Shown here piece after piece: positions 5,925-8,925 of a stretch of DNA of 9,725 nt. The notes under the pieces are model-generated. The model saw only the letters and a program-made list of their open reading frames with translations. It was not told where the DNA came from and made no database searches. How positions within the stretch are numbered: position 1 is the stretch's first letter; each line of letters begins with the position of its first letter. This stretch comes from a virus (taxonomy: Duplodnaviria; Heunggongvirae; Uroviricota; Caudoviricetes), in IMG/VR virus record IMGVR_UViG_2531839454_000019; one strand, written 5' to 3'. The position numbers and the translations under genes are program-made.

Positions 5925-6020
5925 AGCCTCACCTCCGCAAATAACGGATGGTGTACACGGTTCGGAACGAAGAGGAAAGGTATAGAAGTTACATTAGCGT
6001 AAGGCTTGAACATCTATTCA

Positions 6021-6050
6021 AAAAGAAAAACGCCGCGATTATTCTGGCGT
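6021..6050 (-). terminator. Weak candidate terminator between the AraC-like gene and the holin
   Basis: Minus strand: short ACGCC/GGCGT stem with a large loop, followed by TTTTTCTTTT. Stem is weak, T-tract is good. Confidence 0.25.
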
Positions 6051-6111
6051 AGCTGAAAGCATCATACAATTATCAAATACGAAAATTACAAAATCATTAA
6101 AACGCATCACG

Positions 6112-6842
6112 TTACATCATGTCTTTTTCTAAAAAAAATCTTGATGAATATTGATGGGGAGGAACACCAAAATACCTTCTGAAAACACTTACAAAATATG
6201 ACGTGTTTTCATAACCGCATATCTCAGCAACTTTTCCAACAGAATATAAATTGTAGCTTAATAAGCTTTCCGCCATCACCATTCGCTCTTCAAGAATTAA
6301 CTTACTAAATGATAAGCCTTCGTGCTTTAATTTTCTTTTTAACAGACTTTCACTCAGATACAGTCTTGAAGATATATCACAAAGTCTCCATGCTGCAGAT
6401 ATATCCGTGTGAATAATAGCCTTAACTTTACTTCCTAAACTATTAAGACATCCAAATAAAAAACTTTGCACTATTTTCTCTGAAGATAAGATAGCAAGAC
6501 ATGCAAGTGATATTTGATTTCTAACAAAATCCACAGTTCTGCCATCACAATTCAAGCATGCAATCAAGTTCTTTAACAATGAAAAATCTTCACATTCCAC
6601 CATCAAGTATGCCGGATAAAACCTTCTTACAGAAAAAGGTGAGAGTGTGTTGCTTTTAAAGAAATCATTAACTGTTTTTTCTTCAACATCTACGATCATT
6701 ACATGATCTATATTTGATGAAAAAAATCTTTTAAATTGTAATCAATGAGAACAGCATTTCCTTTTTTAAACAAAATATCTTCTTTACCAATTCGGACATC
6801 AAACGAATTCAACACCAAAATGATAGAACATATGTATGGCAT
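6112..6842 (-). pseudogene. AppY/EnvY-like AraC-family transcriptional regulator, split by a 1-nt frameshift in an A7 (T7 on coding strand) run at 6720-6726
   Basis: C-terminal 195-codon ORF (6699..6112) has an AraC-type HTH domain (...SESLLKRKLKHEGLSFSKLILEERMVMAESLL...GYENTSYFVSVFRRYFGVPPHQY). A 44-codon ORF upstream (ATG 6842, AGGTGG SD; MPYICSIILVLNSFDVRIGKEDILFKKGNAVLIDYNLKDFFHQI*) matches the recalled AppY N-terminus ([27 protein letters not shown]...). One extra T in the run, or a -1 slip on T_TTT_TTT, joins the frames (...KDFFSSNIDHVMIVDVEEK...) into a ~246-aa AppY-sized protein. Confidence 0.65.
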
Positions 6843-7193
6843 ATTATCCACCTGATATCATTGGGGTTACACCAGGTAAGTATAGGTGGAAAATCAATAT
6901 TCGCCAGTTCAACAATAAGGAAAATTTCATTACATCACAAGTATAAAATTATGTATTTAACTCACAAAGACAAATTATTAAACCAATCTGTTATATTATA
7001 TATAGCTGCGTGGAATCATAATATTATATATTTTGACTGGCATGTTTACCAACTTTAAGTTGCATCTCAATTGTTTCTTCAGCGTAAACAGAGTTTTTAT
7101 ACAAACTGACACTCTGGGTATCATAGTGTAGTTTTTACGATTGTAAATATCCTGCATGCAGGAACTCATCCTTTTGGATGATATCGCATACAA

Positions 7194-8153
7194 TTAATTT
7201 ACCATCAGTCTTAGAGCCAGTTCGTCCGGATAGGGATCGAAGTAATTCTGTGTAAGCAAGTAATCATTAGGATACTCACCCAGATAATGCTTCAGCAGAG
7301 TCAACGGCGCAAGAAGAGGTAATGTGCCAGAACGATAGTTAAGTATAACCTCGCTCAACTCTTTACGCTGGCGTGTACTTAAGTAGTTACTAAAATACCC
7401 CTGTATATGCATCAGCACATTCGTGTGATTTTTACGTGATGCAGGTTTTCTGAGAATCGCCATCAGCTTATCACGATACACCTCAAAGTATGATTCAAGG
7501 TCCGCCCACTCGTGTATTGCAGCCACAAATGGTCCCATATCTTTATAGCCTGCCTGACTATGCGCCAACAACTGAAGCTTATAACGACTATGAAAAGCTA
7601 ATAACTCTCTTCTTGATAATTTCTCCTTGTAAAGGTGATTGAGCTCATGCAAAGCAAAAACTCTTTCAACAAAATTCTCACGAAGCACTGGATCATGTAA
7701 TCGCCCATCCTCTTCAACCGGTAGCCAGGAAAACTTTTCCATCAAAGTGCTCGTAAATAGTCCCACTCCATCTTTACGACCTCGATTACCATTTTCATCA
7801 TAGACACGCACGCGCTCCATGCCACAGCTGGGAGATTTAGCACAAACCACAAACCCCGATACATCCTTTAATTTGTCCATATAAGAACGACTAAACTCTG
7901 TCATTCTCTCTGTCACATCCTCATTCTGGTCGTGGCTGAAACACATCCGTATATTTCCTTGCATCGAGCGCACAAGACGTAGAGCAGGACGCGGAACTGG
8001 CAGCCCTATAGCCATTTCCGGACATACTGGTCTGAATGTTACCCATTCCACTAATTTGTCCATTAAAAAGTCAGCTCTTTTGTGACCACCATCAAAACGA
8101 ACAGCAGAACCGGCCAAACAACCGCTGATTCCAATCACAGGTTTTTTTATCAT
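7194..8153 (-). CDS. DUF523 (TudS-like [4Fe-4S] desulfidase) - DUF1722 (YbgA-like) fusion protein; RudS-like putative tRNA 4-thiouridine desulfidase
   Basis: 319-aa ORF, ATG 8153 with GGGGGAG upstream. N-terminus MIKKPVIGISGCLAGSAVRFDGG with Cys12, Cys44 (PVCPE), Cys104 and Cys110 (VVCAKSPSCG), matching the three-Cys cluster-ligand pattern recalled for TudS. C-terminal half is a YbgA/DUF1722-like helical region. Domain calls from motif memory, not HMM search. Confidence 0.75.
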   Translation of the reverse strand: MIKKPVIGISGCLAGSAVRFDGGHKRADFLMDKLVEWVTFRPVCPEMAIGLPVPRPALRLVRSMQGNIRMCFSHDQNEDVTERMTEFSRSYMDKLKDVSGFVVCAKSPSCGMERVRVYDENGNRGRKDGVGLFTSTLMEKFSWLPVEEDGRLHDPVLRENFVERVFALHELNHLYKEKLSRRELLAFHSRYKLQLLAHSQAGYKDMGPFVAAIHEWADLESYFEVYRDKLMAILRKPASRKNHTNVLMHIQGYFSNYLSTRQRKELSEVILNYRSGTLPLLAPLTLLKHYLGEYPNDYLLTQNYFDPYPDELALRLMVN

Positions 8154-8345
8154 ATTCTCCCCCTTGACTAATTCATTAACACATAAACTGTGTAGTGCAC
8201 GGAATAAATTGCCTTTCTGGCGTCATCACTGACAATTTTTCTGTTATGGACTATTCCTAATATAGTATGAAAGTTCTTTAAGTGATCGGTCGTAATCATC
8301 TATCTTTCATACTTACTCTCAACTATCAAAAGTACAGGATTTATT

Positions 8346-8870
8346 ATGAAGTTATGGCCTGTGTTGACTGGCATTGCACTCTCTTTCACTCTTATAGCAT
8401 GTAAGGCCCCGACACCACCTAAAGGTGTGCAGCCGATTACAAATTTTGACGCCAACCGCTACCTCGGAAAATGGTATGAAATAGCTCGCCTCGAGAACCG
8501 GTTCGAACGTGGTCTGGAACAGGTCAGCGCTACTTATGGAAAACGGAACGACGGAGGGATTCGTGTACTTAACCGTGGATACGATCCAACGAAAAATAAA
8601 TGGAGCGAGAGCGAAGGTAAAGCATACTTTACTGGAGATACTAAAACTGCAGCATTGAAGGTTTCGTTTTTTGGCCCCTTCTATGGTGGCTATAATGTAA
8701 TCAAACTGGATGATGAGTATAAGTATGCTCTTGTCAGTGGTCCGAACAGAGAATACCTATGGATTCTGGCAAGGACCCCAACTATTCCAGATAAAGTAAA
8801 AGCAGACTATGTGCGAACCGCTCAAAAGTTGGGATTCAATGTCAATGAATTATTATGGGTTAAACAATAA
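8346..8870 (+). CDS. blc: Bacterial lipocalin Blc-like outer-membrane lipoprotein
   Basis: MKLWPVLTGIALSFTLIAC|KAPTPPKGV... with signal peptide and lipobox LIAC. Lipocalin motifs shared with recalled E. coli Blc (NFDANRYLGKWYEIARLENRFERGLE..., SEGKAYFTGD, AALKVSFFGPFYGGYNVI, EYLWILARTPTI). Only clearly coding + strand gene in the cargo region. Confidence 0.85.
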   Translation: MKLWPVLTGIALSFTLIACKAPTPPKGVQPITNFDANRYLGKWYEIARLENRFERGLEQVSATYGKRNDGGIRVLNRGYDPTKNKWSESEGKAYFTGDTKTAALKVSFFGPFYGGYNVIKLDDEYKYALVSGPNREYLWILARTPTIPDKVKADYVRTAQKLGFNVNELLWVKQ

Positions 8871-8898
8871 AATCCCTACCCGAAATAATACTTATTAG

Positions 8899-8925
8899 AA
8901 AAAAACCAGCCTTTGGGGAGGCTGG
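8899..8925 (-). terminator. Rho-independent terminator downstream of Q (tR'-like); also at the 3' end of the convergent lipocalin gene
   Basis: Minus strand: CCAGCCT-CCCCAA-AGGCTGG (7-bp stem; + strand 8906-8925) followed by T7 (A-run 8899-8905 on +). About 100 nt downstream of the Q stop, where lambdoid phages place tR'. Confidence 0.45.

Follow-up and report, generated by a model that had tools for sequence, protein, structure and literature searches.

What is a stretch of about 2.9 kb doing between the antiterminator gene Q and the holin gene of a lambdoid prophage, and do the three genes in it belong together? The question is raised by a 9,725-nucleotide stretch of viral DNA (IMG/VR record IMGVR_UViG_2531839454_000019; hereafter the window, meaning this whole stretch), which holds part of a lambdoid prophage with its late region on the minus strand. 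The cargo stretch, at about 5954–8895, lies between an S21-type holin on one side and, on the other, the tR'-like terminator that follows Q, and comprises a Blc-family lipoprotein gene on the plus strand and, on the minus strand, an intact rudS gene and a frameshifted AraC-type regulator gene. An earlier account of this DNA made from its letters alone (the sequence-only reading) had taken the trio for a coherent stress-adaptation module. Our analysis suggests that the stretch is probably a moron cassette of composite make-up which, together with a quuD-type Q and an S21-type holin, forms a single recombination module passed among lambdoid Escherichia coli prophages; the stress module is a hypothesis, for which synteny provides the support in two of the three genes.

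The island had been placed, at about 3 kb, between the tR'-like terminator and the holin, and these bounds proved exact: the interval 5925–8925 runs precisely from the holin start to the terminator. On one side stands the holin, the first lysis gene (5709–5924, minus strand; PF04971, 121 bits), and on the other Q (9026–9403, minus strand; 125 amino acids; Pfam Phage_antitermQ, 173 bits), whose DNA is 88% identical to K-12 quuD and which homologous loci annotate as a 378-bp antiterminator Q. Homology to the K-12 prophage Qin covers 2808–5953, ending 29 nt upstream of the holin; Qin has the same lysis cassette as the window but a different Q gene, and ynfU, cspB, cspF and ynfS in the slot. Homology to the K-12 prophage DLP12 is limited to the holin (5708–5935) and Q (9044–9427), between which DLP12 carries nmpC. 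The breaks in homology to Qin and DLP12 thus fall at 5935/5953 and 9044, and the claim that the cargo occupies the Q-to-holin position, the equivalent of the Shiga toxin (stx) slot, was borne out by the nmpC of DLP12 and the cspB/cspF of Qin at that place.

Outside these K-12 prophages, the ATCC 43896 prophage and the phages IdasGreatGrand and Lambda_2G7a share exactly 5708–9427 with the window and differ from it elsewhere. Among 80 IMG/VR loci sampled for their backbones, the cassette had rusA–ylcG upstream and rrrD downstream in 42, ydfU/ydfR/rrrQ in 19 and ydfU/rrrD in nine, the rest being of other types. The cassette thus occurs in at least four upstream/downstream module combinations and is not a fixed component of one prophage family. 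This variety of backbones, taken with the shared segment 5708–9427, indicates that Q, cargo and holin move together; as judged from these alignments, they travel as one mosaic module by homologous exchange, in which the cargo is optional.

In its position the cassette resembles other Q-to-holin morons, namely stxAB in Shiga toxin (Stx) phages, nmpC/lc in DLP12, cspB/cspF in Qin and psrA with tRNA genes in Sp4, which likewise vary in content among otherwise homologous prophages and are of atypical composition. It differs from them in having no toxin, porin or tRNA gene and in carrying one gene antisense to late transcription; a tRNA scan of the window found no tRNA genes, in contrast to Stx phages and Sp4. 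We also considered a self-mobile genomic island and rejected it, since the cargo is without flanking direct repeats and without a recombinase of its own: the repeat search at the island boundaries returned no boundary repeats, just short two-copy matches, and there was no recombinase among the open reading frames (ORFs) and profile matches of 5925–8925.

The cassette is common. Its interior (5960–8890) was found in 1155 of 5426 complete E. coli genomes (21%), with at least 80% of the cassette present in 1001 of them; almost all copies are chromosomal, at a median of one per genome. Grouped by their identity to the query, the genomes number 604 at 99% or above, 119 at 95–99%, 324 at 90–95% and 108 at 80–90%, and there are three main allele groups, at about 99%, 94% and 90% identity. 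A phage database held the cassette in 12 sequenced phage genomes, including 1H12 and IdasGreatGrand, and the three cargo proteins each belong to clusters found on at least 1000 contigs, including ones from E. albertii and E. fergusonii. Comparison of the window-type allele (represented for the regulator by the IdasGreatGrand sequence) with the 89% allele gave ratios of nonsynonymous to synonymous substitution (dN/dS) of 0.065 for blc, 0.11 for rudS and 0.25 for the intact regulator alleles, low values that point to selection maintaining each gene where it is intact. Decay occurs as well: in one genome the regulator is replaced by IS1, and in BL21 rudS is truncated by IS3 with blc left in place. 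Two contigs (L068 and L073) of a 'Candidatus Nanosynbacter' metagenome-assembled genome (MAG) carry rudS, blc, regulator, Q and holin at 94–100% protein identity; here the cassette is almost certainly a binning contaminant.

The composition of the cargo is consistent with more than one source. The sequence-only reading had described the island as lower in GC than its flanks, and computation agreed (38% against about 48%): the interval 5925–8925 has 38.3% GC, as compared with 47.7% in the lysis genes, 47.9% in Q and 49.8% at 1–2700, the terminase end. The depression is real but uneven. The regulator gene (6112–6851) and the spacer upstream of it (6852–7193) have 31.5% and 31.6% GC, while rudS and blc have 43.3% and 43.8%, and GC at third codon positions (GC3) is 0.27 in the regulator and 0.40 in each of the other two. 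In the phage neighbours GC3 is 0.50–0.56 for Q, rrrQ and the holin and goes down to 0.38–0.40 for ydfR and rzpQ. Past the lysis genes, on the downstream side of Rz, there is a second AT-rich block (2700–4368; 34.5% GC), and low GC is therefore not peculiar to the Q-to-holin slot.

Relatives of two of the genes are found side by side on bacterial chromosomes. A RudS scan over one genome per bacterial species yielded 64 loci, two of which were short MAG contigs carrying the phage cassette itself; the remaining loci are chromosomal, in Citrobacter, Enterobacter, Leclercia, Kluyvera, Klebsiella and relatives, with RudS identities of 66–76%. At 42 of the 64 (a count that includes one MAG contig) a blc homologue lies upstream of rudS on the opposite strand; at the chromosomal loci its product is about 80% identical to the phage lipocalin, Blc2. 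In Citrobacter sedlakii (L022) the two genes stand head to head across a gap of 188 bp, against 192 bp in the phage. The rudS-linked Blc of Enterobacter is 82% identical to Blc2 and 64% identical to K-12 Blc, which places Blc2 in a second, rudS-linked lipocalin lineage and not with E. coli's own blc. Thus the chromosomal loci of Citrobacter, Enterobacter and Leclercia share the head-to-head layout with the phage cassette, but they are richer in GC (GC3 0.47–0.78 against 0.40, at a DNA identity of about 70%) and contain neither phage genes nor an AraC partner. From these comparisons, blc and rudS were probably captured together, long ago, from an enterobacterial chromosome and have since drifted to lower GC. 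No counterpart of the regulator, Q or the holin was present at the chromosomal blc–rudS loci examined, and an origin separate from that of the pair is most likely for the AT-rich regulator.

These results divide the proposal of a coherent stress module. The part that joins blc to rudS stands, at least as history, on the 42 of 64 loci at which they are neighbours; the part that ties the regulator to them does not, given its different composition, its absence from the chromosomal loci and its loss to IS1 in one genome.

In one chromosomal locus, that of Enterobacter cloacae (L038 3663–4898), blc and rudS are separated by a transthyretin/HIUase-family gene and by the gene of a MerR-family regulator whose helical and C-terminal domains are of MlrA type. 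A MerR neighbour of rudS is likewise noted in the paper that described RudS, which also places rudS relatives in light-responsive operons (Nucleic Acids Res 2024, PMC11417400). The MerR-type regulator gene of the Enterobacter locus is absent from the phage copy. In C. sedlakii, an RluA-type pseudouridine synthase gene follows rudS.

The central gene of the pair, rudS (7194–8153, minus strand; Pfam), is intact and encodes a 319-residue tRNA 4-thiouridine (s4U) desulfidase of TudS(DUF523)+DUF1722 architecture, with a 2-thiour_desulf domain (PF04463) at residues 7–149 (137 bits) and DUF1722 (PF08349) at residues 192–309 (140 bits). It is oriented in the sense of the late operon. All seven cluster-binding or catalytic residues are kept (C12, C44, C110, E46, R55, S107 and S109); we took the list from PMC11417400 and mapped RudS_KT numbering by offset to Cys12/44/110 of RudS_vir. 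In RudS_KT, the cluster ligands and catalytic residues proved essential by mutagenesis (PMC11417400). The window's RudS is 93% identical to RudS_vir, the protein of Escherichia phage 1H12 (H3V29_gp66), overexpression of which in E. coli lowered tRNA s4U (PMC11417400), and by kinship to this assayed protein the allele in the window is predicted to be an s4U-lowering enzyme. The RudS_vir strain also had the shortest lag on 4-thiouracil, and overexpression of RudS_KT cut the growth delay induced by ultraviolet A (UVA) by about 45 minutes (PMC11417400). Phage 1H12 resembles the window in having Q, blc, rudS, regulator and holin in the same order, with a RudS of the same length and the same Cys12/44/110; it differs in belonging to another allele group, at about 89% DNA identity across the cassette. 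The earlier study treats the RudS_vir gene alone, and the prophage context is not discussed there (PMC11417400).

That study describes E. coli as being without RudS (PMC11417400). K-12 indeed lacks rudS and has just ybgA, adjoining phr, so the statement is true for K-12, but it is untrue for the fifth of strains that carry the cassette. BL21-Gold(DE3) has a Qin-like prophage (NC_012947.1 2189311–2198194; L008) with the phage blc and a 147-nt stub of the 5' end of rudS, cut by IS3. BL21(DE3) was the host of the RudS_KT assay for UVA-induced growth delay (PMC11417400), and the assay host thus itself retains blc and a truncated rudS.

The second gene, blc2 (8346–8870, plus strand), encodes a 174-residue outer-membrane lipocalin lipoprotein of the Blc family (Pfam Lipocalin_2, 150 bits) that scores 316 bits on NCBIfam NF007786, the outer membrane lipoprotein Blc subfamily, against a cut-off of 267. 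With the domains of RudS, this score upheld the Blc-like and RudS-like identifications that had been made by eye. The N-terminus, MKLWPVLTGIALSFTLIAC-K, has the lipobox LIAC with Cys19, as read from the sequence with no predictor. Blc2 is 60% identical to K-12 Blc, and its gene runs antisense to late transcription. Of the 19 lambda phages in a study of infant-gut coliphages, more than 50% were reported to carry blc as a moron (Nat Commun 2020, PMC6969025). The same phage collection appears here, with the Lambda_ev and 1H12 records among the cassette matches; in the portion of that article available to us, blc alone of the cassette genes is named, and rudS, the regulator and the link to the chromosomal pair are not mentioned.

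The third gene is a frameshifted AraC-type regulator of the PatE/Psr/AppY type (6112–6851, minus strand; HTH_18, 53.8 bits; HTH_AraC, 45.2 bits), split into a 47-residue ORF (6708–6851) and a 195-residue ORF (6112–6699). Alignment with intact 243-residue alleles showed that the break is a 1-nt deletion, T7 in place of T8 at 6720–6726, and in other genomes RefSeq gives this allele the tag 'frameshifted'. The 47-residue ORF stops 8 nt ahead of the ATG of the 195-residue ORF, which holds the whole DNA-binding domain, and some residual activity may arise by re-initiation. The intact allele is 54% identical over 235 residues to ECs_0287 of Sakai prophage Sp1, 48% identical to PsrA (ECs_1087) and 32% identical over 233 residues to AppY. 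The sequence-only reading had called the gene an AppY-like AraC regulator; the AraC type is right, but the gene is frameshifted in the window and is closer to ECs_0287 than to AppY. Among NCBIfam models YdeO scored best, but its 127 bits are far under the equivalog cut-off of 348, and we rejected an identification as YdeO itself.

Like PatE, PsrA and PsrB of O157:H7 and AppY of DLP12, the regulator has a small N-terminal domain followed by an AraC double helix-turn-helix, is borne on a prophage and is AT-rich; it differs from them as a distinct paralogue, and a frameshifted one. In Sp4, psrA lies between the Q gene and the lysis genes, that is, in the Q-to-holin slot; a PatE-like gene is found in the defective prophage Sp1 of O157 Sakai, and the AppY gene lies at the far end of DLP12, outside the slot. 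The psrA gene (ECs_1087; L011 18550–19391) is annotated as 195 residues, with its frame open further upstream; the upstream frame encodes MVVVCSVIMV..., homologous to the intact regulator's N-terminus MPYICSIILV..., and the annotated psrA start is probably too far downstream.

The T-tract of the regulator slips repeatedly. Roughly 534 genomes have this allele. Exact copies in complete genomes number 240 with T8 and 239 with T7, 232 of the latter on the common single-nucleotide polymorphism (SNP) background and seven on that of the window; a T8 query on the window's own background had no exact match in complete genomes. In the IMG/VR sample (L080–L159), T8 was present at 43 loci, T7 at six, T6 at two and T9 at one, and of these lengths T8 alone is in frame. 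Two T7 carriers that we inspected had identical DLP12-like contexts with identical protein accessions, indicating that the near 50:50 split between T8 and T7 comes largely from over-sampled clones. In the other allele groups the tract, TTTTCTTTTC, is interrupted and not prone to slip. On the strength of the over-sampled clone and the interrupted tracts elsewhere, a phase-variation switch was rejected and the tract was treated as a mutational hotspot.

How the cargo might be expressed follows from its place downstream of the late promoter. A PR'-like leader (8895–9025, minus strand) ends in the tR'-like terminator, found by terminator scan as a hairpin at 8904–8927 with a U-run; read at 8927–8904, it has a 9-bp stem and a U7 tail (−14.9 kcal/mol, z = −3.6). 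The PR'–tR' region is kept among the cassette alleles and partly shared with DLP12, and we read TTGCTG-17-TAACAT as a candidate PR' promoter. PR'–tR' would constitute a single late promoter unit upstream of the cassette and, with all late genes downstream of it, Q-modified RNA polymerase must cross the 3-kb cassette on induction. Such read-through would make sense transcripts of rudS and the regulator and antisense RNA of blc, while in the lysogen cargo expression would rest on local promoters. The best candidate for a local promoter is TTTACA-16-TATGAT (7120–7147, minus strand), which agrees with the consensus at 10 of 12 positions. It lies just past the end of rudS, about 270 nt before the start codon of the regulator, and is nearly invariant across alleles within a spacer rich in indels; its function is putative. 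The divergent blc–rudS intergenic region (8154–8345; 192 bp, 33.9% GC) contains weak promoter-like matches alone. Downstream of the regulator, the allele alignment revealed a terminator-like hairpin with a T-run (6020–6050, minus strand), which has a 7-bp stem in the LT2-3 allele (−13 kcal/mol, 56-nt stretch folded) and a 5-bp stem in the window, where the fold is no better than that of shuffled sequence.

The same spacers contained other elements that we set aside. A 65-residue ORF at 6996–7193 was rejected as a conserved coding sequence because of out-of-frame indels between alleles. A 20-nt repeat (17 of 20 positions matching; 6981–7000 and 8936–8955) shares TATAACAG between the spacer upstream of the regulator and the PR' leader; the copy at PR' is shared with DLP12; the 1H12/2G7a allele lacks the one in the spacer, and on this ground the repeat was rejected as a conserved element. 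A match to a betaproteobacterial small RNA at 8897–8940 overlaps the terminator hairpin and reached 28.6 bits, against a gathering score of 50. An Rfam scan of the whole window at permissive thresholds found nothing in the island.

As a mechanism, RudS would remove sulfur from tRNA s4U, the near-UV sensor, and should thereby blunt UVA-induced growth delay. Blc2 would bind lipids as an outer-membrane lipoprotein facing either the cell surface or the periplasm, presumably to help maintain the membrane under stress. A functional link between the two is plausible, both being connected with damage by light or oxidation and relatives of rudS lying in light-responsive operons, though adjacency in the donor would by itself account for their joint capture. 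An intact regulator would probably activate host acid-resistance genes as PatE and PsrB do, the latter two being activators of gadE and hdeA (PMC10877973). In the window, with the regulator frameshifted and an insertion sequence (IS) next to Q, it is likely that blc2 and rudS alone are functional.

Several points weigh against this account. Promoter-like matches numbered 13, against 11.6 expected in shuffled sequence. The closest relative of the regulator, ECs_0287, is PatE (z0321) only by our presumption, through the correspondence of Sp1 with CP-933H, and the regulator's targets are predicted from relatives just 48–54% identical to it. The adjacency of blc and rudS may reflect shared ancestry alone, in which case their co-capture would be uninformative on shared function. 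Finally, RudS_vir was the weakest tRNA desulfidase of those assayed, though well expressed (PMC11417400).

Among other explanations, the one that survives best is that the three genes are unconnected hitchhikers: independent morons in a permissive slot, with blc and rudS together by adjacency in the donor and no stress logic among them. The GC gap between the regulator (31.5%) and its neighbours (43–44%) and the regulator's absence from chromosomal blc–rudS loci fit this account, as do the copies that persist without the regulator (IS1) or as blc with a rudS stub (BL21) and the unrelated contents of the slot elsewhere (nmpC, cspB/cspF, psrA with tRNAs). The trio nevertheless occurs together in 1001 genomes and in three diverged allele groups, all three genes are under purifying selection and blc and rudS are neighbours in many genera, and we regard wholly unconnected cargo as rather unlikely.

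A second explanation has the cassette serving the phage itself, with RudS, made in bulk on induction, stripping s4U from tRNA so that near-UV, a frequent companion of the DNA damage by which prophages are induced, does not stall the translation of late proteins. In its favour, rudS is the first sense gene after PR'–tR', from which it is separated by the opposite-strand blc; the delay in growth after UVA is shorter when RudS is overexpressed (PMC11417400), 12 sequenced phage genomes retain the cassette, and the MerR-type light-responsive regulator gene of Enterobacter is missing from the phage copy. However, tRNA that is already cross-linked is beyond rescue by desulfuration, many lambdoid phages are without rudS and the opposite-strand blc does not fit, and a benefit of this kind seems to us improbable. 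Little more can be said for a fuller version, which we offer as speculation: that blc2 and rudS are a conserved two-gene unit of Enterobacteriaceae for near-UV or photo-oxidative protection that temperate phages captured, stripped of MerR light control and rewired to the Q-dependent late promoter, so that a prophage induced by sunlight would erase s4U and keep late translation running. If true, it would make a tRNA-modification eraser a phage auxiliary gene, and a fifth of E. coli strains would have a UVA response unlike that of K-12.

That the cassette in the window is an inert, decaying remnant of a defective prophage we consider quite unlikely: the regulator is frameshifted, the IS3-family end abuts Q, the hairpin after the regulator is weakened and no genome of the collection gave a whole-window high-identity match without IS interruption, but rudS and blc are full-length with all catalytic residues and the lipobox intact, and are 99.8–100% identical to copies in many other genomes.

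Returning to the composite moron cassette, each gene type in it has already been described, and the cassette is common. What is new is the divergent blc–rudS pair on Citrobacter and Enterobacter chromosomes and the variation in regulator T-tract length between copies; we also add the broken regulator and the IS next to Q in this copy, the kinship of the regulator to PatE/Psr over AppY and the prevalence figures. A full-text literature search returned no paper in which YbgA, lipocalin and prophage are all mentioned. A prophage copy of a tRNA s4U eraser is present in about one in five complete E. coli genomes, and the cassette may underlie differences between strains in UVA growth delay, in the stringent response and in tRNA s4U content. 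The sense orientation of rudS downstream of PR'–tR' makes a link between prophage induction and tRNA modification directly testable. In other respects the cassette is a standard case of cargo exchange in the Q-to-holin slot.

Beyond the module, the upstream end of the window holds the end of an IS3-family, ISEc52-like element (9428–9725, plus strand), its 298 nt being 100% identical to an ISEc52-family element in NZ_CP024278.1 (L001 30594–30891). It lies 24 nt ahead of the start codon of Q, separating Q from the nin-region genes that precede it in related prophages; early transcription has perhaps lost its reach to Q, which may leave the prophage without the means to activate its late genes. 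The primers of the phiv142-3 orf10 study had no match in the window.

On the other side, the genes beyond the holin are ydfR (DUF1327), an rrrQ-type phage lysozyme gene, an Rz-like gene and a cspI-type cold-shock gene with a cspA-type leader. As in K-12 Qin, ydfR (5393–5704; 103 residues) stands between holin and endolysin; cassette-bearing prophages that have an rrrD-type lysozyme are without it. Within the second AT-rich block, at 2700–4368, the cspI-type gene (3793–4008) is accompanied by a full cspA thermoregulator leader (3747–4163; Rfam RF01766, 107 bits) and by several small ORFs homologous to the gnsB/ynfN region of Qin, and the block looks like another moron cluster.

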